Of a DNA stretch of 64,000 nt, positions 35,772 through 46,598 are shown piece after piece; positions within the stretch are counted from its first letter, which is position 1; every line of letters starts with the position of its first letter. A program made the position numbers and the translations under genes. A model generated the notes under the pieces. It saw nothing but the letters and a program-made list of their open reading frames with translations. It made no database searches and was not told the origin of the DNA. This DNA comes from Candidatus Gastranaerophilales bacterium. Lineage in GTDB: Bacteria; Cyanobacteriota; Vampirovibrionia; Gastranaerophilales; Gastranaerophilaceae. Where the stretch lies: the NCBI GenBank assembly GCA_944323655.1, contig CALUTL010000006.1:19950-83949 (forward strand), given 5' to 3'.

Positions 35772-36311
35772 ATGAACATAGTACAACCTATAAAAAAGAT
35801 AGAAGACATCCAAAAGATTAAAAAATATCTTGCAAAAAAGCCAAGAGATGCACTGCTTTTTAGTTTCGGGATAAATACAGGACTTAGAATATCTGATATA
35901 TTATCGCTTGATATTGGGGATGTAAAAGGCAGAGATTATATTGAAATTAGGGAGAAAAAGACGAATAAGTATAAGAAATTTCCGCTTAATAGATTTTTGA
36001 AGGAGGAGATTAATTTATTTGTAGAGGGTTTGGCGAGTGAGCAACCGCTTTTTTATACACAAAAACATTGCAGGCTTGATAGAGCACAGGCGTATAGAAT
36101 TTTGAATAAGGCAGCACAAGCTGTTGGGGTGAAGGAAAGAATCGGAACACATACGCTAAGGAAGACATTCGGATATCATCATTATAAAAAATATAATGAT
36201 ATAGTACTCCTGCAAAAAATCTTTAACCACTCCTCTCCATCAGTAACACTCCGCTACATCGGCATTGAACAAGACACAATAGATGAAAGTTATATGAATT
36301 TTTATTTATAA
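35772..36311 (+). CDS. minimal (catalytic-domain-only, FimB/FimE-sized) tyrosine recombinase
   Basis: 179 aa with GLRISDILSL (Arg I), HTLRKTFGYH (H-x-x-R), NHSS (His) and LRYIG (Tyr nucleophile). No N-terminal core-binding domain. Confidence 0.85.
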   Translation: MNIVQPIKKIEDIQKIKKYLAKKPRDALLFSFGINTGLRISDILSLDIGDVKGRDYIEIREKKTNKYKKFPLNRFLKEEINLFVEGLASEQPLFYTQKHCRLDRAQAYRILNKAAQAVGVKERIGTHTLRKTFGYHHYKKYNDIVLLQKIFNHSSPSVTLRYIGIEQDTIDESYMNFYL

Positions 36312-36413: not shown

Positions 36414-36442
36414 TTGACATTAAAAGTTTTTTATGTTAATAT
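36414..36442 (+). promoter_or_regulatory. consensus-like sigma70 promoter for the R-M operon (TTGACA-17 nt-TAATAT)
   Basis: TTGACA at 36414-36419, a 17-nt spacer, and TAATAT at 36437-36442. Lies ~160 nt upstream of the first ORF at 36606. Confidence 0.55.
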
Positions 36443-36605: not shown

Positions 36606-36815
36606 ATGTTACGTAGATATTACGTAAACAACTCTGCGCAGTCAAATGGCGACCATGAAGTTCATGAAGAACATTGCACGTTCTTGAAACTAGCTGTTGA
36701 TGTTAAATTTCTCGGTTGGTTTGAAAACGGCATTCAAGCTGTAGCATATGCAAAGAAGTTTTATTCACGTGCTGATGGCTGTTTTTACTGTTGCAAAGAA
36801 GCGCACAAGCGTTAA
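36606..36815 (+). CDS. small Cys/His-rich protein (putative zinc-binding), unknown function
   Basis: 69 aa with NGDHEVHEEHC...GCFYCCKEAH. SD AAAGGA upstream. First ORF of the R-M transcription unit. Confidence 0.6.
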   Translation: MLRRYYVNNSAQSNGDHEVHEEHCTFLKLAVDVKFLGWFENGIQAVAYAKKFYSRADGCFYCCKEAHKR

Positions 36816-36871
36816 TTGAACTGTGAGGTAAGGGGGGGATTTCCCCCGCTCGCCTCAATAAAGGAAATTAA

Positions 36872-37507
36872 ATGAAAAAATTTACATTAAATCAAATAGT
36901 AGAAATTCAAGCCGGACTTGTTTTATCGAGAACGGGTGCTAAGCAACTTGAATTAATAAAAAGAAATGTTGCAGAAAAAGTTTCAGACATTACAGTTCGA
37001 AAATATAAAGCAATTACTTTACGTTCAATAACAGATGTTGGAATTTTAGATTTGTCTCAATGTGATGATTTTGATAGCAAAGAAGAAATTTCTGATAGAT
37101 ATTTAACACATAATAATGATATTTTAGTAAGAATGTTTACACCTTTGAAATGCTGTTTAATTAATAGCGAGGAAGAAAATCTTGTTGTTCCATCGCAGTT
37201 TTGTATTTTAAAGTTAAAAGATTCTTTCAGAGATATTATTTTACCTGAGTATTTGTATTTGGTAATGCGAAATAAGGATTTTTCAAAGCAAGTACAAAAA
37301 TTAGAAGAAGGTTTTCAATTGCGATCGATAAAAACGTCTTCTATTGCTAAAATCAAAATAAATATTCCAGACATTGCAACGCAAGAAAAACTTATTAATG
37401 TTTCAAATTTAATAAGAAGAAAAGAAAAACTGATGTCAGAATTAATTATTCAAGAAAAACTATACAATGAAACTATTTTAGAAAAATTAATCAAAGGAGA
37501 AATATAA
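36872..37507 (+). CDS. hsdS: type I R-M specificity subunit, half-size (single target-recognition domain)
   Basis: 211 aa: one TRD-sized region followed by the conserved helical tail IPDIATQEKLINVSNLIRRKEKLMSELIIQEKL. Its stop shares a nucleotide with the hsdM ATG (TAATG). Confidence 0.7.
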   Translation: MKKFTLNQIVEIQAGLVLSRTGAKQLELIKRNVAEKVSDITVRKYKAITLRSITDVGILDLSQCDDFDSKEEISDRYLTHNNDILVRMFTPLKCCLINSEEENLVVPSQFCILKLKDSFRDIILPEYLYLVMRNKDFSKQVQKLEEGFQLRSIKTSSIAKIKINIPDIATQEKLINVSNLIRRKEKLMSELIIQEKLYNETILEKLIKGEI

Positions 37508-39072
37508 TGAAAACTACAAGAGCAGATATAGAAGCAGCGTTATGGAGGGGGGCTAATACTTTTAGGGGTATTATTGATGCCGCAAACTATAAAGATTATG
37601 TATTATCAATGCTATTTGTAAAATATTTGAGTGATACATTCAAAGAAAATGTAGAAAATTTAAAATCAAAATATCCTGATGAACAAAGATTTGAAAGAGC
37701 AAAATCAAGACTGCCATTTGCACTAAGTGAAGAGCAAACCTTTGATTACTTATATGAGAATAGGTTCAACTCTGAAATCGGTCAAAAAATAAATGCAGCT
37801 TTAAGAGCAATAGAAGACAATAATCCACAGTTACAAGGAGTTTTCAGAAGTGTAGATTTTAATAGTGAACCTAATTTAGGAAACCCAAAGCAAAAAGCTA
37901 CAACTTTAAGAAATTTATTGGAAGATTTTAAATCTCTTGATTTAAGGCCTTCAATGATTGAAGTTAAAGAAAATCAAGTAGCGTCTGACGTTCTTGGAGA
38001 TGCATTTGAATATATGATTGGTGAATTTGCAAGCCAAGCAGGCAAAAAGGCCGGCTCATTCTTTACTCCAATGATGGTCTCAGAACTTATGGCACAAATC
38101 GCAAAACCTAAACAAGGAGATAGTATTTATGACCCAACCTCAGGTTCTTGCTCATTACTTATAAGGGCTGCAAAATATGCAGGAGTTAAGCAAGTATCAA
38201 TTTATGGACAAGAGATGAATGGTTCTTCTTGGTCAATGGGCAAAATGAATATGTTTATTCACGATATTATGGATTCTAAAATAGCTTGGGGAGACACTTT
38301 AGCAAATCCTGCTCACCTTGATAGTGATGGAAATCTGATGAAGTTCAATGTGGTTGTTGCTAATATGCCATTTTCTCAAGATAAGTGGGCTGAAGGGTTT
38401 AACCCTGGAGGGGAGAGTGATGGTAAAGAAAAAAACAAAGATAAAAAGTTTAAAATGGAAGCAAAGTATGATCCTTACAATAGGTTTGATTGGGGTATAC
38501 CACCTTCAAGTAAAGGTGATTGGGCATTTTTGCTACACATGATAAACAGTTTACAACCTGATGGAAGAATGGTTGCAGTAGTTCCGCATGGTGTCTTATT
38601 TAGAGGAGCTTCAGAGGGTATTATAAGAAAAAGAGTTATAGAAGAAAATCTTTTGGATGCTGTAATTGGACTGCCGGAAAACTTATTTTTTGGAACTTCA
38701 ATCCCTGCTTGCTTATTGGTTATTAAGAAAAACAGATCCGACAAAGATGTATTATTTATTGACGCATCAGGTGAAGGCAGATATGTCAAAGATAAAACAC
38801 AAAACAAACTAACTCAAAAGAATATTGATGATATTTTAGATGTTTATAATAAACGAGAAACAGTAGATAAATTCTCTTATGTGGCAACTTTTGAAGAAAT
38901 TAAAGAAAATGAGTTTAATTTAAACATTCCTCGCTATGTTGACACATTTGAGGAAGAAGAAATTATAGATATTGCGCAAGTGCAAACAAATATCAAAAAT
39001 ATTAAATCTGAGCTTGAAGTAGTTGAAAAGGACTTGGCAGATGCCCTTAAAGAATTAGGGGTGGAGGTATAA
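37507..39072 (+). CDS. hsdM: type I R-M N6-adenine DNA methyltransferase subunit
   Basis: N-terminal HsdM_N-like LWRGANTFRG, the AdoMet motif IYDPTSGSCSLL, and the catalytic VVANMPF (NPPF variant). Confidence 0.93.
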   Translation: MKTTRADIEAALWRGANTFRGIIDAANYKDYVLSMLFVKYLSDTFKENVENLKSKYPDEQRFERAKSRLPFALSEEQTFDYLYENRFNSEIGQKINAALRAIEDNNPQLQGVFRSVDFNSEPNLGNPKQKATTLRNLLEDFKSLDLRPSMIEVKENQVASDVLGDAFEYMIGEFASQAGKKAGSFFTPMMVSELMAQIAKPKQGDSIYDPTSGSCSLLIRAAKYAGVKQVSIYGQEMNGSSWSMGKMNMFIHDIMDSKIAWGDTLANPAHLDSDGNLMKFNVVVANMPFSQDKWAEGFNPGGESDGKEKNKDKKFKMEAKYDPYNRFDWGIPPSSKGDWAFLLHMINSLQPDGRMVAVVPHGVLFRGASEGIIRKRVIEENLLDAVIGLPENLFFGTSIPACLLVIKKNRSDKDVLFIDASGEGRYVKDKTQNKLTQKNIDDILDVYNKRETVDKFSYVATFEEIKENEFNLNIPRYVDTFEEEEIIDIAQVQTNIKNIKSELEVVEKDLADALKELGVEV

Positions 39073-39074
39073 AT

Positions 39075-39500
39075 ATGATATCTATTGGAATTAGAATAAC
39101 AGCTAAAGAATTAAGATATGCCATTATAGACTTAAAAAAAAGAATAATGTTAAATAAAGAAGATCATTGTGTAAAATTTCCTAAAAATATTGATGATGCA
39201 GAAAAATTCCAGTGGCTATATAAAGAAATTGAAGAAATAGTAAAACAATATCCTATAAATAAAGTTGTAATTTGTGAAAATAATTATGGTCGAGATTCAA
39301 AAGCATTAAGACTGTCTAATCGACTTGATGCAATAGTTGTATTAGCTTTTGCAAACAATTGTATACCAACAACAATAAAATCTCTAAACTTAAAAGAAGA
39401 AGATATGTTGGTAACAGCAGAAAAACATGTTGGAAAGACAGATAAATATTGGAATAAAATGATTGCATCTTGTATTATTGTTGCCATAGGAGATAAATAA
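39075..39500 (+). CDS. hypothetical 141-aa protein nested in the R-M operon (possibly RNase H-like/DUF3010-like fold, a weak guess)
   Basis: GGAGG lies 8 nt upstream of ATG 39075, which is 2 nt after the hsdM stop. Its 3' end carries the SD for the kinase gene. MISIGIRITAKELRYAIIDL...INKVVICEN loosely recalls RuvC/DUF3010-type N-termini. Confidence 0.7.
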   Translation: MISIGIRITAKELRYAIIDLKKRIMLNKEDHCVKFPKNIDDAEKFQWLYKEIEEIVKQYPINKVVICENNYGRDSKALRLSNRLDAIVVLAFANNCIPTTIKSLNLKEEDMLVTAEKHVGKTDKYWNKMIASCIIVAIGDK

Positions 39501-40553
39501 TTGACATACAAAGTAACATATAAAATAAATGAAAAATATGAAATAAAAAAACTTTTGGGGCAAGGAAATTTTGGCCAAGTCTACCTTGTTCATAATAAGA
39601 TTTTAAATAAAGAAAGAGTAATAAAAATAGTACAGGTTATAGATGCAGATACTTTTCAGGAAGCTCAAATTGGAAATATTATTACACATAAAAATTTAGT
39701 AAAAATTCATAGTGCAGAATATAATCAAGATTTACAACATTTAATTATTGAAATGGATTATTGTGAGAAAGGTTCAATAGAAAGTAAATTAAATGCAAAC
39801 GGTTATTTGCCATTAAAAAAGGCTATTAAATATACAATTGAGTTATTAAGAGGATTAGAAGCATTACATGGAAATAGTATTTTTCATAATGATATTAAAC
39901 CTAAAAATATCCTTATAAGTAGTGATGATAGAGCGATGTTAACTGATTATGGAATTGCGATGATGTCATCTGATAAACAACCAATAAATCCACAAAAAGG
40001 ATTTTACAAATTACATTATGCTCCAGAGTCTTTCGAAACAGCTTGTATAAATATATCAACAGATATATATCAAGTTGGACTTACTTTATTCAGAATTATT
40101 AATGGCGTTGAGGTTTTGCCAACAAAATTTTATCAAATAGGTGAAGAATCATATTTTGAATTAGTAAAAAGTGGCAAATTAATTGCTAAAAACGATTATT
40201 TAGACTTTGTTCCAAGACAAATAAAAATGATTATTAACAAAGCGATATCTCCTGATATTAAGAAACGATATCAAACAGCAAGAGAGATGAGGCATTCTTT
40301 AGAACAATTAATTATATCTGGAGACTGGAATCTTGATTCGAATGGTATTTTGTATGGAGAGGATAATAGATTTAAATATACATTTGATATTGAAACCAAA
40401 CAAAATAAATATAATTTTAAAGCATATAAAATTAATAAAAAGTCTAATATAAAAACACAAATTCATAAATATGATAAAAAAAATATTGATATTAAATCTT
40501 TAAATGCGCATAAAAAGAATTTCATGCAAGATGTTGTTACAGGAAATATATAA
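39501..40553 (+). CDS. Hanks-type Ser/Thr protein kinase with unassigned ~80-aa Lys/Asn-rich C-terminal tail
   Basis: LGQGNFGQVYLV (Gly loop), RVIKIV (Lys), HNDIKPKNILI (catalytic loop, non-RD), LTDYGIA (DFG-like), YAPE (APE). The TTG start directly follows the orf141 stop, with AGGAG 8 nt upstream. No in-frame ATG lies upstream of the Gly loop. Confidence 0.88.
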   Translation: MTYKVTYKINEKYEIKKLLGQGNFGQVYLVHNKILNKERVIKIVQVIDADTFQEAQIGNIITHKNLVKIHSAEYNQDLQHLIIEMDYCEKGSIESKLNANGYLPLKKAIKYTIELLRGLEALHGNSIFHNDIKPKNILISSDDRAMLTDYGIAMMSSDKQPINPQKGFYKLHYAPESFETACINISTDIYQVGLTLFRIINGVEVLPTKFYQIGEESYFELVKSGKLIAKNDYLDFVPRQIKMIINKAISPDIKKRYQTAREMRHSLEQLIISGDWNLDSNGILYGEDNRFKYTFDIETKQNKYNFKAYKINKKSNIKTQIHKYDKKNIDIKSLNAHKKNFMQDVVTGNI

Positions 40554-41820
40554 AAGGGCTATAGAAACTGTGTTAAAAAACAAAAAAGAAGAAATTAAAA
40601 ATAGAATAGATTTAATTAATCGAGGGGAAGTTCCCGAGGGTTATAAATGTTGTTGGGGGTACATATACCCTGAATCTTGGAATATTAAAAGTTTAAAAGA
40701 TCTGTTCTACAAAGTTAAAACAAAAAATGCAGCAAATGAGAGTTTGCCTGTTTTAACCAACTCTGCAACACTTGGTGTAATTTTGCAAGATGAATATTTT
40801 GATAGAGAAATTGTAAATGATGAAAATACCAATAATTATTATATTGTTGAAAATGGAGATTTCATGTATAATCCACGGATTTCATCCAATGCACCGGCAG
40901 GACCAATTAACAGGAATACACTCGGACAAAAGGGTATAGCGTCACCTTTGTATACTATATTCAGAGCTAAAGATACTAAAAATATTGAATTTGTAGAAAA
41001 ATATTTTAAGTCAAATTATTGGCATAGATACATGAAAAGTGTTTCGAATCAAGGTGCACGACATGATCGACTAAACATAAATGATGAAGATTTTATGCGT
41101 ATGCCTATTCCTCAACCATCAAAACAAGAGCAGGAGAAGATTGCGAAGATTTTGAACTGCTGTGATAAGGTTATTGAACTTAAACAAAAATTGCTGGAAG
41201 AAAAAAATAAAGAATTTATTATTGCTATTAATAAATTAATTTATAAAAATAATCTGAAGTATCCAATAAAAAAAATTGAAGAAGTTTGTGAAATATTAGA
41301 TAATAAAAGAATTCCATTAAATGACGAAGAAAGATTAAATATAAAAGGATCAATACCTTATTATGGTGCAAATGGTGTTTTAGACTTTATCAATAAATAT
41401 ATATTTGATGAAGAGCTTGTTTTATTGGCTGAAGATGGTGGACATTTTGATGAATATTATAAGAGACCTATTGCACAATTTGTAAAAGGAAAATCTTGGA
41501 TAAATAATCATGCTCATATTTTGAAAGCAAAAAATAAAGAAAATTTATACTTGTATTTTTCACTAGTTCATAAAAATATTTTATCTATATTAAATGGAGC
41601 AGGTCGTGCAAAATTAAATCAAGCAGATTTAAAAAAAATAAAAATACCATATCCTGAAGACAAAAAACAGAATGAAATAGCTAGAATATTATCGATGAAA
41701 GAAAAGCACATTAAACTTTTAGAACAAGAACTTGATCAATATAAGCAGCTAAAAAAAGCCCTTTCACAACTGCTTTTGACAGGCATTGTAAGAATAGTGG
41801 AGGTAGATTGTGAAAACTGA
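40504..41820 (+). CDS. hsdS: type I R-M specificity subunit, full-size (two TRDs)
   Basis: Two TRD-sized regions separated by the central conserved helix PQPSKQEQEKIAKILNCCDKVIELKQKLLEEK. The C-terminal helix reads KKQNEIARILSMKEKHIKLLEQELDQYKQLKKAL. The start is uncertain (ATG 40504 or 40531); either overlaps the kinase gene's 3' end. Confidence 0.88.
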   Translation: MRIKRISCKMLLQEIYKRAIETVLKNKKEEIKNRIDLINRGEVPEGYKCCWGYIYPESWNIKSLKDLFYKVKTKNAANESLPVLTNSATLGVILQDEYFDREIVNDENTNNYYIVENGDFMYNPRISSNAPAGPINRNTLGQKGIASPLYTIFRAKDTKNIEFVEKYFKSNYWHRYMKSVSNQGARHDRLNINDEDFMRMPIPQPSKQEQEKIAKILNCCDKVIELKQKLLEEKNKEFIIAINKLIYKNNLKYPIKKIEEVCEILDNKRIPLNDEERLNIKGSIPYYGANGVLDFINKYIFDEELVLLAEDGGHFDEYYKRPIAQFVKGKSWINNHAHILKAKNKENLYLYFSLVHKNILSILNGAGRAKLNQADLKKIKIPYPEDKKQNEIARILSMKEKHIKLLEQELDQYKQLKKALSQLLLTGIVRIVEVDCEN

Positions 41821-42760
41821 TGTTTATTTTGCAAAAAAAGACGGGATGTTATTGATTGCTTATGAAAACCATAAGCAACAAAATGTTTTTTTGCAGGTTG
41901 ATTATGCAGATTTTGCCCCTCAAATACGAGCACAACTTATATGTGACAAAAATTATAATATTGAAAAAATTATCACTAATGCTTATGAATATCCGATTAT
42001 AAAAAAAGAAAATATGGAAATCGGAGTTAAATATAAACATATTTGGAAGCCTTTAATGCAAAATAATATAGAAAAAGAGCTAGATTTTTCTGTACAAGAA
42101 GCATATAGAGCCAAAAGAGATTTAGGAATACTTATTCAAAAACTGCAAGAAATTTTGTTATTTATTGAACCATCTAATGAAGGATTAAAAGCATATAGTC
42201 ATAAGGCAAGAGAACTATTGTTTTTAGCCTGTTCAGATCTTGAATGCAGTTTAAAAAAATATTGTTTTGGAAAAAATGACAGAATGAAAGATTATGTTAA
42301 ATTAATTGATTATATAGATTTAACAAAATATAAATTATCTCTTGTCGGGTATTCAAATCCATATAAATGTTGTCCTTTTGAAAATTGGAATAAAAAAGAG
42401 CCGTCAAAATCAATTCCCTGGTATTATGCATACAACCAAATTAAACATAATATTGATAAGAACTTTCATATGGCAACTCTTGAAAACTGTATTAATGCAA
42501 TAGCTGCAAATATTATTTTATTTGCTGTCAGGTATTCAGTACGGTATATATATGGAAAAGACGATGTTTGTTCTAATTTAATAAAAAGTTCTTTGGATTA
42601 TAGAATTGAAAATAGTATGGATTTTTATATCCCAATTTATGAAGGCGAAAGAAGTTATTCCGGAGCATTTACGATGCCATACAAATTTCATAACGGACAA
42701 GTTGTTGAAAATAGCTATGATATAGGAAATCTTCTTCCTTTTGTAGAAAAAGAATTGTAA
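41810..42760 (+). CDS. hypothetical 316-aa protein nested between hsdS and hsdR
   Basis: GTG 41810 is preceded by GGAGG (41799-41803) and lies 11 nt inside hsdS. The ORF ends 17 nt before hsdR. No Walker motif seen. The segment WYYAYNQIKHNIDKNF is noted, but no family was recognised. Confidence 0.72.
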   Translation: MKTDVYFAKKDGMLLIAYENHKQQNVFLQVDYADFAPQIRAQLICDKNYNIEKIITNAYEYPIIKKENMEIGVKYKHIWKPLMQNNIEKELDFSVQEAYRAKRDLGILIQKLQEILLFIEPSNEGLKAYSHKARELLFLACSDLECSLKKYCFGKNDRMKDYVKLIDYIDLTKYKLSLVGYSNPYKCCPFENWNKKEPSKSIPWYYAYNQIKHNIDKNFHMATLENCINAIAANIILFAVRYSVRYIYGKDDVCSNLIKSSLDYRIENSMDFYIPIYEGERSYSGAFTMPYKFHNGQVVENSYDIGNLLPFVEKEL

Positions 42761-42777
42761 AATATAAGGAAATAATT

Positions 42778-45700
42778 ATGACATTAAATCATTACCAATA
42801 TAACGAAAGACCTGAAAGCCAAGAACCTGCAATCGAATTGCTTGAAAAATTGGGCTGGAAATATTTATCACCCACCGACGCAGAAAAACAACGTGGGAAT
42901 TTATATAATGTAATTTTAAAAGACGATTTAATGAATTTTTTAAAAGAGCAAAGATATGATTACAAAGGTGAAAAATTCCAATTTTCTTCAAGCAATATTG
43001 CTCATGCTATTTCTGATATTGATATTCCTTTGCAGTCAGGTTTGATGAAGACTTCAAAAGAAATATATGATCTTTTGATTTATGGAAAAAGCTACGAAGA
43101 AGATTTGTATGATGGCGGAAAATCCTCTTTTGATTTAAAATTTATTGATTGGAAACATCCTGAAAAGAATATTTTAAGAGTTACAGAGGAGTTTTCTGTT
43201 CAAAAGTTGGACCGCTCCAAAAGGCGTCCTGATATTGTTTTAACAGTTAATGGAATTCCTCTAGTTGTAATCGAATGCAAGAAGTCTTCAGTTAGTATTG
43301 ATGAAGGTATAAGACAAAATATTAAAAATTGGAAAGCTGATGAAATTCCACATTTATTTAAATTTATTCAACTGGTAGTTGCAATGAATTCACATAGTTT
43401 TAAATATGGAACCTGTGGAACAAAATTTGAGTTTTTTGTACCTTGGAAGGAAAAAGATACTGATTGGATGAATAAACAGTTAGAAGAATTAATTCAAGGA
43501 AGGCTTCCAAAAGAACAAGATAAAAATATAATTGCAATGCTTTCACCTGAAAGATTGTTTGAAATAATACAATATTATACGTTATACGATAATAATGTAA
43601 AAAAAGTTGCCAGATATCAACAATTTTTTGGAATTCGAAAAGCTATTAACCGTATTACACTAAAAGATGGCAAAGGAACAAGAAATGGTGTGATTTGGCA
43701 TACTCAAGGCAGTGGAAAATCATTAACCATGGTTATGCTTGTAAAAAAAATTATTGCAGTTTCTCAAGAAGAAAATTCTGATATAAAAAATCCTAGGTTT
43801 GTTCTTGTAAATGACAGAATTAATTTAGACAAACAGTTAAGAGATAACTTCTCTAATACCCAGATGAATCCTGCAAGAGCAAAAACAGGCAAAGGTTTAA
43901 TTGAATTATTAAAAGATGAGGGTGAAACTCTTATTACTACTGTTATTCATAAATTTGAAAAAGCAGCAAAACAAAAGACTAAATTAAATGACAACAACAT
44001 ATTTATTTTAATAGATGAATGCCATAGAACACAGAGTGGCAATTTTCATAATTTCATGACGGATGTTTTACCAAATGCTGTAAAAATTGGATTTACCGGT
44101 ACTCCATTATTAAAAACAGAAAAACAAAGTACGTATGACAGGATTGGTCCGTTAATAGATAGTTATCCGATTAATAAGGCTGAAGAAGATAAGGTTATTG
44201 TTCCTCTTGTTTATGAAGGTCGTAAAATTCCGCAAAAAACTACAAGCGATGCAATTGATCAATATCTGGAACAAAGTCTAATTGGATTAACCGAGCAACA
44301 ACAGGAAGATTTAAAACGTAAATATAGTAGATTTACAAGTATTGCTCCAACAATGCCTAGGTTGACTTGTCTTGCATATGCAATAAAACAACATTATGAA
44401 AGATACATTAAACCAAATGGATTTAAAGCTATGATTGCAGAATCCTCAAGAGTAAGTGCTATTGAATTACATAAACTGCTAAAAAGCCTTGGTTTAAAAA
44501 CAGCTGTAGTAATTTCCCCAGAAGCAAGAGCTGAAGGTGAAGAATTAAACAATAGTGATAAAGATAAAATTGCGCAATTTTTTAAAACCGAAATTGAGCC
44601 TTTATATGGAATGAATTATGAAGCTTATGAAGATTGGGCAAAAAATAGCTTTACCGATGGTGAAGATATTGATATTTTAATAGTAAAAGATAAATTATTA
44701 ACTGGATTTGATGCTCCTATTGCACAAGTTTTGTATGTAGATAAATCAATGAAAACGCATAATTTATTACAAGCTATTGCTAGAGTAAATAGAGTTTTTC
44801 CTGGCAAAAAGAATGGGCGAATTGTTGATTTTTATGGTATTTTTGAGAATTTAACTTCTGCTATGGACTTGTATTCAGATAAAGAATCCGGAATGAATCA
44901 GTTTGATAAAGACGATATTAAAAAAACTATATATGGTCCGGAAGATGTAAAAAAAGAACTGTATAACAACTATGATCAAGTTATGCAATTTATTGCAGGA
45001 CATAACACTGATGACACAGAAGAAATACAATTATTATTTAAAGATGAAGATATAAGAAAAGATTTTTATGAAAAACTATTGAATTTTTCAAACTCACTTG
45101 ATACGGCAATAAGTAATTATAATGTATATGAAGGAATTGGTATTGATGAAATTAAAAGATTGCAAAAAGATTATGTCTATTTGCAAAAATTAAGAAGTGG
45201 CATAAAACTTCGATATGGTGAGACTGTTGATTTTTCTGTTTATGAATCTTCCATTAAAAATTTACTAAATCAATTCGTTTCAGCCGAAGCTGATGAAATT
45301 GTAATAAATCCGCTTTATCTATCAGATAAAGCAACTATGGAAAAAGAATTAGAAAAGCTACCCTCTTTAAGGGCTAAAGCAGAAGCTATGGTATATAATA
45401 TAGCAACAAGGCTCTCTGAGACAAGAGAAAAAGACCCGATTTTTTATAAAACATTTAGACAAAGATTAGACGAAACTATTGCAGAGTATAATAAAACAAG
45501 AAATGAAGAAGCTTATTTAGCACAAATGAAAGATCTTGAAAATGATTACGAAAAGGGATTTGTTGGGAATAAATATCCAACGGTTATTTCTGATGATGAT
45601 GACGCTAAAGGTTTTTATGGAAATATAAAATTAGAATTAGAAAAAAATATCAAAATCTCAGAAAATGATGATATAGATAATCAACTGGGTATTTTGGCAA

Positions 45701-45894
45701 TATTAATAAAAAATACATTTAGAAATTCCCAAAAACCAGGGTGGCAATATAATACAGTACTTATAAATAACATAAAACAAGAAATTGAAGATGCTATTTT
45801 TGATTTTGTAGATAATAATGGTATTACATTGGATATGGACCAACTAGATAAAATAGAAGAAGATATTTTAATGACTGCAAAGAGTATATTTTGA
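42778..45894 (+). CDS. hsdR: type I restriction enzyme R subunit (SF2 helicase-nuclease)
   Basis: 1038 aa with a PD-(D/E)xK-like N-terminus (PDIVLTVNGIPLVVIECKK), Walker A TQGSGKSLTM, DEAH-like LIDECHRTQ, and TGTPL. Confidence 0.95.
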   Translation: MTLNHYQYNERPESQEPAIELLEKLGWKYLSPTDAEKQRGNLYNVILKDDLMNFLKEQRYDYKGEKFQFSSSNIAHAISDIDIPLQSGLMKTSKEIYDLLIYGKSYEEDLYDGGKSSFDLKFIDWKHPEKNILRVTEEFSVQKLDRSKRRPDIVLTVNGIPLVVIECKKSSVSIDEGIRQNIKNWKADEIPHLFKFIQLVVAMNSHSFKYGTCGTKFEFFVPWKEKDTDWMNKQLEELIQGRLPKEQDKNIIAMLSPERLFEIIQYYTLYDNNVKKVARYQQFFGIRKAINRITLKDGKGTRNGVIWHTQGSGKSLTMVMLVKKIIAVSQEENSDIKNPRFVLVNDRINLDKQLRDNFSNTQMNPARAKTGKGLIELLKDEGETLITTVIHKFEKAAKQKTKLNDNNIFILIDECHRTQSGNFHNFMTDVLPNAVKIGFTGTPLLKTEKQSTYDRIGPLIDSYPINKAEEDKVIVPLVYEGRKIPQKTTSDAIDQYLEQSLIGLTEQQQEDLKRKYSRFTSIAPTMPRLTCLAYAIKQHYERYIKPNGFKAMIAESSRVSAIELHKLLKSLGLKTAVVISPEARAEGEELNNSDKDKIAQFFKTEIEPLYGMNYEAYEDWAKNSFTDGEDIDILIVKDKLLTGFDAPIAQVLYVDKSMKTHNLLQAIARVNRVFPGKKNGRIVDFYGIFENLTSAMDLYSDKESGMNQFDKDDIKKTIYGPEDVKKELYNNYDQVMQFIAGHNTDDTEEIQLLFKDEDIRKDFYEKLLNFSNSLDTAISNYNVYEGIGIDEIKRLQKDYVYLQKLRSGIKLRYGETVDFSVYESSIKNLLNQFVSAEADEIVINPLYLSDKATMEKELEKLPSLRAKAEAMVYNIATRLSETREKDPIFYKTFRQRLDETIAEYNKTRNEEAYLAQMKDLENDYEKGFVGNKYPTVISDDDDAKGFYGNIKLELEKNIKISENDDIDNQLGILAILIKNTFRNSQKPGWQYNTVLINNIKQEIEDAIFDFVDNNGITLDMDQLDKIEEDILMTAKSIF

Positions 45895-46598
45895 TGAAAA
45901 AATATTATTTATTAAAAGATAAAAAAGGGTTCTTAATTGATATAGAACGTAAGAATATTAAAAACTATAATATAAGGATTTTGCCTGACAATAACATAAA
46001 GTGTTCAGTCCCAATGCAGACTACAGATGAAGAGATTTCCAAGTTTTTAAAATCTAAAGAATGCTGGATCTATAAACACAATGTCAGACAAGAAAAACTT
46101 CAACCATTACAAAATAAAGATATTCTGAAAAATGGTGGTTTTGTTAAAATTTTAGGACATTTTTATAATGTAAAAATCGAATCATCACAAAGTTTTAAAA
46201 TCATTTTAAATGATAGGAATATCATTTTTTATACAAATGAAGTTGATAATATTGATAAAAAATATCGAAATTTTGCAAGAAAAAATATGCAAGAATATTT
46301 TGAAAAGGTAATAGAAAAATTTTATCCAATAATAAGAAAATATAATAAACCTAAACCAATATTAAAAATTAGAAAAATGAAAGCCTGCTGGGGAACTAGT
46401 AATCCTGAACAAAATGCAATTACTTTAAATGAATATTTATATTCAGCATCTCCTTATTGTATTGAATATGTTGTGCTGCATGAATTAACTCATTTTTTAT
46501 ACACAAATCATGATAAACAATTTTTTGATTTTATAAGTATTCATATGCCAGATTGGCAAGAACGAAAAAACAAATTAAATACAGATTTTAATATATAA
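45894..46598 (+). CDS. YgjP/DUF45-like (M48/WLM-like) zinc metallopeptidase
   Basis: VVLHELTHFLYTNHDKQFFDFISIHMPDWQERKNKL (HExxH plus the typical downstream pattern). The ATG overlaps the hsdR stop (TGATG). Confidence 0.82.
   Translation: MKKYYLLKDKKGFLIDIERKNIKNYNIRILPDNNIKCSVPMQTTDEEISKFLKSKECWIYKHNVRQEKLQPLQNKDILKNGGFVKILGHFYNVKIESSQSFKIILNDRNIIFYTNEVDNIDKKYRNFARKNMQEYFEKVIEKFYPIIRKYNKPKPILKIRKMKACWGTSNPEQNAITLNEYLYSASPYCIEYVVLHELTHFLYTNHDKQFFDFISIHMPDWQERKNKLNTDFNI

Follow-up and report, generated by a model that had tools for sequence, protein, structure and literature searches.

An uncharacterised gene between hsdS and hsdR of a Gastranaerophilales type I restriction operon as a candidate defence cassette

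In the prr locus of Escherichia coli the slot between hsdS and hsdR is occupied by prrC. In the stretch of Candidatus Gastranaerophilales DNA that we analyzed (64,000 nucleotides (nt) of contig CALUTL010000006.1, hereafter the window, with coordinates given on its + strand) the slot between the same two genes of a type I restriction-modification (R-M) operon contains a gene for a 316-residue protein, which we name X. Is X a latent toxin of the PrrC type, a subunit of the restriction enzyme, a passenger of mobile DNA or a defence gene in its own right? With a probability of about 0.6 we read X as an autonomous, mobile single-gene defence candidate which the operon has acquired in its hsdS-hsdR cargo slot, and the description of X as a defence cassette is quite likely.

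X is a real gene under strong purifying selection and no chance open reading frame (ORF). In comparison with five relatives the ratio of nonsynonymous to synonymous substitution rates (dN/dS) is 0.06-0.18, and the GC content at third codon positions resembles that of the adjacent genes. The GTG start is confirmed by 142 homologous clusters which have the length of X and share its N-terminus MKTDVYF. Between the GGAGG sequence at the end of hsdS and the GTG at 41810 there is a spacer of 6 nt, the stop codon of hsdS (TGA, 41818-41820) lies inside the first codons of X with an overlap of 11 nt, and 17 nt separate the stop codon of X from the ATG of hsdR at 42778. An earlier sequence-only reading of the window had described this ORF with its start, GGAGG spacing, hsdS overlap and hsdR gap, and all of these were verified in the sequence. 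The coupling of X to hsdS which had been proposed along with them is borne out by the 11-nt overlap and the GGAGG with its 6-nt spacer; X is thus predicted to be translationally coupled to hsdS.

The slot between hsdS and hsdR

Whether the hsdS-X-hsdR arrangement is conserved in close relatives can be answered with yes. Among the 26 loci whose X is more than 50% identical to that of the window (L001-L026, the close clade) 22 have the order hsdS, zero to two further genes, X, hsdR, ygjP. In certain alphaproteobacterial gut metagenome-assembled genomes (MAGs) HsdR and HsdM have an identity of only 33% and of 44%, respectively, with the proteins of the window, but X has one of 60-66%. Type I lineages which have diverged thus carry X again in the same slot. 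The stop codon of X usually overlaps the start of hsdR by 4 nt in these alphaproteobacterial relatives. A separate clade, 42% identical, follows hsdM-hsdS in an Oxalobacter MAG.

Two copies of the close clade were found outside a detectable type I R-M operon. One is located in a Treponema MAG (L013, 10251-10970), being 81% identical and truncated to 239 residues, and the other in a rumen proteobacterial MAG (L024, 9995-10945; 51% identical).

For a survey of the slot, metagenomes were scanned with the HsdR of the window. Five of the relatives with an HsdR at least 89% identical and with upstream sequence carry X; one (L087, HsdR 90%) does not and has in its place a 100-residue ORF and a gene for the Shedu protein SduA (SduA_C with an expect value (E) of 1e-25; SduA in PADLOC). 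The DNA homology between the window and L087, as determined with blastn, ends at 41802 and resumes at 42784. These breakpoints correspond to the ribosome-binding site of X and to the third codon of hsdR, and we therefore regard the replacement of X by Shedu as a clean cassette swap. Shedu is, like X, a single-gene element and takes the identical cassette position in a backbone with a 90% identical HsdR. The two proteins are, however, unrelated: SduA has a PD-(D/E)xK nuclease (the SduA_C domain), whereas X has a helical core and lacks such a domain. In more distant operons of the type hsdM-hsdS-[slot]-hsdR-ygjP the slot is empty in L090 and L094, and elsewhere it contains SduA, GmrSD, YhcG/DUF1016 or NucS-like nucleases (PADLOC PDC-S02), AAA_14 with DUF4143 (PDC-S01), DUF7380 with DUF4209 (PDC-S39) or DUF4062 with HATPase_c_4. 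By this comparison the hsdS-hsdR slot is a hotspot of recombination, where the place of X can be taken by Shedu, GmrSD or further embedded defence candidates.

Such embedding has been used as an argument before. 'Guilt by embedding' was described for type I R-M operons by Payne et al. (bioRxiv 10.1101/2024.01.29.577857), and TgvAB of the Vibrio cholerae island VPI-2 is an experimentally validated embedded example (PMC11411939). X is nested in a multi-gene defence system and is neither a mobility nor a housekeeping gene. It shares with TgvAB and with the HEC and PDC candidates of Payne et al. that an uncharacterised gene is nested in a type I R-M operon, and its own slot holds the candidates PDC-S01, PDC-S02 and PDC-S39 besides GmrSD and SduA in related operons. 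In contrast to the entries of the HEC/PDC catalogue, X and three distant family members match none of the models of that catalogue. As an architecture, the nesting of defence genes in type I operons is already known from PrrC, TgvAB and the PDC candidates; what is new, by the libraries searched, is the protein family of X.

The slot also bears on the question whether the type I enzyme employs X as an accessory or regulatory subunit, acting in HsdR assembly, restriction alleviation or specificity without being an effector itself. X is indeed always the gene just before hsdR-ygjP, in many cases overlapping hsdR by 4 nt, and is retained while the cargo between hsdM and hsdS turns over. Sister hsdM-hsdS-hsdR-ygjP operons are nevertheless complete without X, their slot being empty (L090, L094) or filled with unrelated cargo; in addition X has no Hsd domain, its family is found overwhelmingly outside R-M contexts, and its conservation resembles an active site and not an interface. 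We consider this explanation very unlikely. The related proposal of an accessory specificity or anti-anti-restriction factor is likewise disfavoured by the exchange of the cassette with Shedu and by a family that mostly lacks R-M genes.

The protein family of X and its genomic contexts

A profile built from 31 homologues and searched against 1.84 billion representative proteins shows that the family comprises no fewer than 2,731 clusters at 50% identity (the number obtained at E<=1e-3; 524 clusters at E<=1e-30). Nearly all members have a length of 280-345 residues. In a scan of one genome per GTDB species, members were present at 236 loci in Melainabacteria, Alpha-, Beta- and Gammaproteobacteria, Bacteroidota, Cyanobacteria, Planctomycetota, Bacillota, Spirochaetes and bacteria of the candidate phyla radiation. 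Where a source names the proteins they are called 'hypothetical protein', and this holds also for the E. coli members in RefSeq.

Comparison with the libraries gave no assignment. X had no match in Pfam even at E=10, which includes AAA and ABC models (none at E<=10), and no match in NCBIfam; Pfam scans of 10 and then of 115 divergent members returned scattered noise only. A profile search of the family against the PDB sequences yielded nothing at E<=10. PADLOC-DB v2.0.0 (5,027 models including PDC) gave zero matches for X, for the phage protein SEN8 gp01 and for two further distant members, although the same library does recognize the neighbouring slot cargo (PDC-S01, PDC-S02, PDC-S39, SduA). 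Since X and three distant members match no PDC model of PADLOC, the family is outside the catalogue of embedded candidates. We conclude that none of the libraries searched contains the protein family, and judging from the models described below its fold may be new as well. A clear match to a housekeeping family, which would have spoken for an everyday function, was seen neither in Pfam and NCBIfam nor in PADLOC and the PDB sequences.

That X is a housekeeping or metabolic protein which came to lie in the operon by chance is scarcely credible. Nothing beyond the lack of a functional annotation speaks for it. The family occurs in a scattered manner in many phyla, gut MAGs of Melainabacteria and Alphaproteobacteria having copies 60-66% identical to each other; its locations are confined to mobile and defence regions, and the neighbours differ from locus to locus.

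Distant family members were analyzed at 51 loci (less than 45% identical to X). No conserved partner gene was found around them, and 50 of the 51 are without a type I R-M gene nearby. Mobile-element neighbours comprise a resolvase in three loci, a relaxase and also integrases. Immediate neighbours related to defence are a type IIG/ISP-like R-M enzyme of 1,318 residues, which lies directly upstream, a KAP NTPase/PifA, a DEAD helicase with T5orf172, Lit/Peptidase_U49, Abi_alpha, mad5 and HsdS. One member (39% identical) is located between two AIPR genes, beside an FRG gene and AAA and Peptidase_S8 genes; a comparison of the family profile with an AIPR protein (hhalign) showed no relationship. 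Another member, 41% identical, closes a small integrative element as its final gene, and 12 plasmids, 8 of them conjugative, carry a member.

The contexts in P2-like prophages deserve a closer description. The protein gp01 of Salmonella phage SEN8, YP_009785143.1, is a member with 34% identity (E 2e-42) in which all motifs are kept, and its gene sits between cos and the portal gene gpQ. In E. coli we find a homologue in 16 genomes, 12 of which share one sequence type; at the one inspected locus of this sequence type (strain C21) the gene is located between gpA and gpQ and adjoins an RNase-A-like toxin/immunity pair and an HNH gene. By their position the sites in SEN8 and strain C21 are the cos-proximal defence hotspot of P2-like phages (Rousset et al. 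2022; PMC9122126), in which old, tin and the systems described in that study also reside. The copy of the window differs from these members in being chromosomal, R-M embedded and only 34% identical. The hotspot members are annotated as 'hypothetical protein', and the accession search found no paper naming them in the library searched. A third E. coli allele is found at the tail-fibre/invertase end of a prophage. By all these neighbourhoods the members of the wider family are genes that stand alone, in hotspots of phage defence as well as among the cargo of mobile elements.

In E. coli CS18F the homologue WP_001564476.1 lies directly upstream of a gene for a 449-residue DUF4145-domain protein (L164, 6149-7498) in a small integrase-flanked island near the vat gene. 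The two genes may form a two-gene module. A further homologue from E. coli is WP_227534336.1.

These contexts allow us to weigh the possibility that X is a latent toxin of the PrrC type, silenced by bound HsdMS(R) and released when an anti-restriction protein of a phage attacks the R-M system. X shares the slot with prrC, is predicted to have its translation coupled to that of hsdS in the window and of hsdR in relatives, and has kept its slot position across divergent type I lineages. Like PrrC of EcoprrI it is a single gene between hsdS and hsdR, co-expressed and a presumed back-up of restriction. But X has no similarity to PrrC: PrrC has an ABC-ATPase N-domain, a P-loop and an Arg-Glu-His anticodon nuclease (ACNase) domain, none of which is present in X. 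A P-loop (motif GxxxxGK[ST]) was not found in the sequence of X, and together with the missing Pfam match this agrees with the sequence-only reading, which had seen no P-loop or familiar motif. Membership in the PrrC/RloC group was rejected accordingly, the ABC-ATPase and P-loop being absent by Pfam and motif search and the ACNase domain by Pfam, NCBIfam and PADLOC; the position is the only feature in common. Moreover, PrrC is hardly ever found outside type I R-M operons (Payne et al., bioRxiv 10.1101/2024.01.29.577857), while most members of the X family are solo genes. With 50 of the 51 distant loci lacking a type I R-M gene and many solo members residing on phages and plasmids, X should need no Hsd antidote. 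The exchange of X as a cassette with Shedu, which is autonomous, also argues against a guarded toxin, and the N-terminal module of X is conserved without co-variation though HsdR diverges to 33%, which speaks against co-evolving contacts. We therefore find no support for the earlier suggestion that the R-M complex guards X, the family being mostly without R-M, exchanging as a cassette with an unrelated defence gene and lacking PrrC features, and we hold a latent toxin of this type to be unlikely.

A role for the mobile element itself would be either that of an addiction or exclusion toxin or that of a recombination or homing factor which targets such slots. Distant members indeed have resolvases, integrases and a relaxase as neighbours, one lies at the border of an integrative element and others are carried by conjugative plasmids, and a site for DNA cleavage could in principle be made up of the conserved Arg, His and Tyr. 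X matches no recombinase, transposase or HNH model, however, and has no structural match; it is always co-oriented and translationally coupled within the operon, the breakpoints of the cassette coincide with gene boundaries, and the slot otherwise holds defence genes. Such a role therefore seems to us quite unlikely.

The context of the family supports instead the idea, already put forward in the sequence-only reading, of an abortive-infection or defence effector: in relatives the slot holds Shedu, GmrSD and PDC candidates, and family members reside in the P2 defence hotspot and in the AIPR island.

Predicted structure, conserved residues and a possible mechanism

The AlphaFold2 model of X, computed with a 31-sequence alignment, is a single compact unit with a mean predicted local distance difference test score (pLDDT) of 91.6 and a predicted template modelling score of 0.88. 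In it, beta strands at the N-terminus (residues 1-75) are followed by a helical core, which includes a small hairpin (87-262), and by further strands at the C-terminus. The N-terminal module could not be aligned to distant members: BLASTP against SEN8 gp01 covers only residues 70-275, and most matches in the search of the representative proteins start after profile position ~50-100. The region shared by the whole family thus comprises residues ~70-285, the N-terminal ~70 and the C-terminal ~40 residues being clade-specific.

Conservation was calculated across 115-118 divergent members. W193, Y208, K212 and H213 are invariant, and G72, R80, P121, R134, E143, E145, T159, Y162, P189, F190, W204, Y205 and N209 are at least 90% conserved; R134 (98%), E143, E145, Y162 and N209 (96%) reach at least 95%. 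The invariant and near-invariant residues from 121 to 243 are part of the helical core, while G72 and R/K80 are located just upstream and Y273 just downstream. The residues 204-219 of X (WYYAYNQIKHNIDKNF) contain the signature motif WYxAYNxxKH, and a second conserved helix carries (G/S)-H-K-x-R-E-L-L-x-L-A-C-T-E-x-E; at the position of E143 the copy of the window has D. The stretch which had been singled out from the sequence of X alone proved to be the most conserved element and the signature of a very large family. The pattern of conservation looks like that of an active site rather than that of an interface.

Comparisons with known folds were carried out as profile and structure searches (hhalign, Foldseek), which had also been recommended beforehand, and as run they gave no significant match for X. 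Foldseek with the full model found nothing significant in the PDB (best E 0.076, template modelling (TM) score about 0.1) and in BFVD only an uncharacterised phage fragment of 153 residues. With a model of the core only (pLDDT 84.7) about half of the top 50 PDB matches were HEPN toxins, among them 7ae2, 5yep, 7bxo, 6m6u, 8yuf, 1wwp and 1ylm; all of them were below the threshold of significance (E>=1.9), with target-normalized TM scores mostly of 0.33-0.50 (range 0.3-0.5). We treat this sub-threshold similarity of the models as a lead and not as a result. X shares with the HEPN RNase toxins (HepT/SO_3166, DUF3644/HEC-08, Abi2, RiboL-PSP) a predicted helical-bundle core and the defence-island lifestyle, and its Y-N-x-x-K-H has the spacing of R-N-x-x-x-H. 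It differs from them in that their defining Arg is an invariant Tyr in the X family. Of the loose resemblance to HEPN RNases that had been remarked on earlier, the His motif and a sub-threshold structural likeness therefore stand, whereas the Rx4-6H motif is absent and the profile comparisons were negative.

We do not assign X to the HEPN group, since Rx4-6H and a HEPN profile match are absent and the similarity in Foldseek is no more than a lead. Several other classes were set aside. An HD phosphohydrolase does not agree with D214, which is only 62% conserved and is Asn in the copy of the window; for an HNH/His-Me finger the hairpin lacks a conserved His or Asp; a PD-(D/E)xK fold is at odds with the helical core; and a tyrosine recombinase and RNase T2 are without profile or structural support.

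How could X act as a defence gene? We propose that X would be a second-line effector which comes into play once a phage escapes restriction. The clade-variable beta module, formed by the N- and C-terminal strands, would sense or regulate, and the conserved helical core would be the enzyme. Candidates for the active site are Y208, N209, K212 and H213 on one face of a helix, R134, E143 and E145 on another helix, and in addition Y162 and W193. Because Tyr, Trp, Lys, Arg, His, Asn and Glu abound among the conserved residues, a nucleic acid or nucleotide as substrate and a metal-independent chemistry suggest themselves; the likeliest substrate would be nucleic acid, cleaved by a metal-independent HEPN-like RNase chemistry that stops the growth of the infected cell. 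We prefer a HEPN-like RNase since Y-N-x-x-K-H has the spacing of R-N-x-x-x-H and HEPN toxins are the only recurring structural neighbours. The designation as an RNase-like effector is nevertheless tentative and on balance doubtful. It is possible, though less likely than not, that the family, with its thousands of sequence clusters in many bacterial phyla, in phages and on plasmids, comprises single-protein anti-phage effectors with an undescribed fold and a non-canonical catalytic centre (Y-N-x-x-K-H plus Arg/Glu); they would represent a new enzymatic route to abortive infection which the defence catalogues have missed.

A number of observations weigh against these proposals. As to defence in general, most neighbours of the distant members are ordinary or mobile-element genes, a search of the literature by the accessions of family proteins found no citing paper, and the copy of the window deviates at sites which are 83-94% conserved (T159M, R80K, R215I). 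The RNase step in particular is opposed by the core-only model, for which Foldseek gave no significant match in the PDB (best E 1.9, probability <=0.33), and by the absence of Rx4-6H in the family, the position of the Arg being the invariant Y208 in 115-118 members. Of the HEPN models of Pfam only HEPN_RiboL-PSP was matched by 2 of 115 members with E of 0.066-0.22, which is noise, and hhalign of the family profile with the DUF3644 (HEPN) profile resulted in a probability of 0.3-0.5%; with a DUF4145-domain protein it likewise revealed no relationship.

The remaining operon and its second cargo slot

The array around X comprises a half-hsdS (from 36872), hsdM, orf141, a gene for a Ser/Thr kinase, hsdS, X, hsdR and a gene for a YgjP-like peptidase (Table 1). 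The intergenic gaps along the array are -1, 2, 0, -50, -11, 17 and -4 nt, a packing which is consistent with a single operon. A scan for promoters and terminators gave the same counts as shuffled sequence, and no internal promoter is claimed. The overlap of 50 nt (40504-40553) is that between the kinase ORF and the first possible start of hsdS, whose true start may be farther downstream.

Table 1. Positions of the features discussed in the text (window coordinates unless a locus is named)
Feature	Position	Strand	Basis or remark
Gene X	41810..42760	+	GTG start, TAA stop 42758-42760, 316 residues; ORF call
GGAGG ribosome-binding site of X	41799..41803	+	within the 3' end of hsdS; direct sequence reading
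Swappable cassette	41803..42783	+	blastn of the window vs L087
N-terminal beta-rich module, residues 1-75	41810..42034	+	AlphaFold2 secondary structure; R-M-embedded clade only
Conserved helical core, residues 87-262, with small beta-hairpin	42068..42595	+	AlphaFold2 models, conservation analysis
Motif Y(S/G)HKxRELL, residues 129-137	42194..42220	+	followed by E143 and E145 (95-97%); conservation analysis
Signature motif WYxAYNxxKH, W204-F219	42419..42466	+	Y208, K212, H213 invariant; conservation analysis
hsdM	37507..39072	+	N6_Mtase 2.6e-102 and HsdM_N
Second cargo slot, hsdM-hsdS junction	39075..40553	+	orf141 and Ser/Thr kinase (PD-T4-6/MAD6-like)
hsdS, full length, upstream flank of the slot	40504..41820	+	Methylase_S 4e-32
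hsdR, downstream flank of the slot	42778..45894	+	HSDR_N 8.6e-42, SWI2_SNF2 1.5e-69, T1R_D3-like domains
YgjP-like metallopeptidase gene	45891..46598	+	Pfam YgjP-like 1.4e-43; overlap with hsdR 4 nt
Alternative hsdM-hsdS cargo loci	L001 7955-8755; L003 1862-2866; L005 7023-8732; L006 6787-8804; L008 7407-8749		

The junction between hsdM and hsdS is a second variable cargo slot, of which the kinase module is one allele. The combination of orf141 and kinase is found in the window and in L004. Backbones with an HsdM 88-99% identical have other cargo at this place: a DSPc-like phosphatase with DUF4160, DUF3644 (HEPN), DUF6119, RhuM with DUF3644 or RhuM with DUF4160. In L001 (CABROM010000004.1, a gut MAG) X is 100%, HsdM 99% and HsdR 98% identical to the window, while HsdS is only 74% identical and the hsdM-hsdS cargo differs; specificity and cargo therefore turn over rapidly on a near-identical backbone. 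L001 is labelled 'uncultured Clostridium sp.', and its nearest relatives are Gastranaerophilales/Melainabacteria. The view of the operon as a composite, multi-layer system, which had been suggested on account of the kinase module, is supported by this variable slot. The locus displays two cargo slots whose contents change independently of each other while the R-M backbone stays nearly identical.

Some further features of the operon were noted. In almost all related operons (L084-L162), down to an HsdR identity of ~30%, hsdR is succeeded by ygjP, the two genes mostly overlapping by a short stretch; ygjP is a constant partner of this type of HsdR whether the slot is filled or empty. The orf141 (39075-39500), which precedes the kinase gene with a gap of 0 nt and accompanies it also in L004, has as its sole match the RuvC equivalog of NCBIfam (E 9.5e-5), far below the threshold with 22 bits compared to a cut-off of 163. 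The half-size hsdS (36872-37507; 211 residues, one target-recognition domain) overlaps the start of hsdM by 1 nt and is conserved in 13 relatives; it may encode a second specificity subunit or be what is left of a system for hsdS shuffling. A truncated gene for a tyrosine integrase (179 residues, 35772-36311) is located upstream of the half-size hsdS. Between this integrase fragment and the half-hsdS there is an ORF for a Cys/His-rich protein of 69 residues (36606-36815, + strand; MLRRYYVNNSAQSNGDHEVHEEHC...CFYCCKEAHKR), with a promoter-like TTGACA-17-TAATAT (36414-36442) on its 5' side and a G7ATTTC5 hairpin (36832-36847) on its 3' side, directly before the R-M operon. This region could encode a controller protein or function as an attenuator of the operon.

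To conclude, three independent contexts tie the family of X to defence, namely the R-M slot with its Shedu swap, the P2 prophage hotspot and the AIPR island. Genes nested in restriction operons are a rich source of new immune systems, and the homologues in P2-like prophages of E. coli and Salmonella make this family tractable by plaque assay. If the anti-phage activity of X is true, a new effector family, possibly with a new catalytic fold, would be added to the bacterial immune repertoire.

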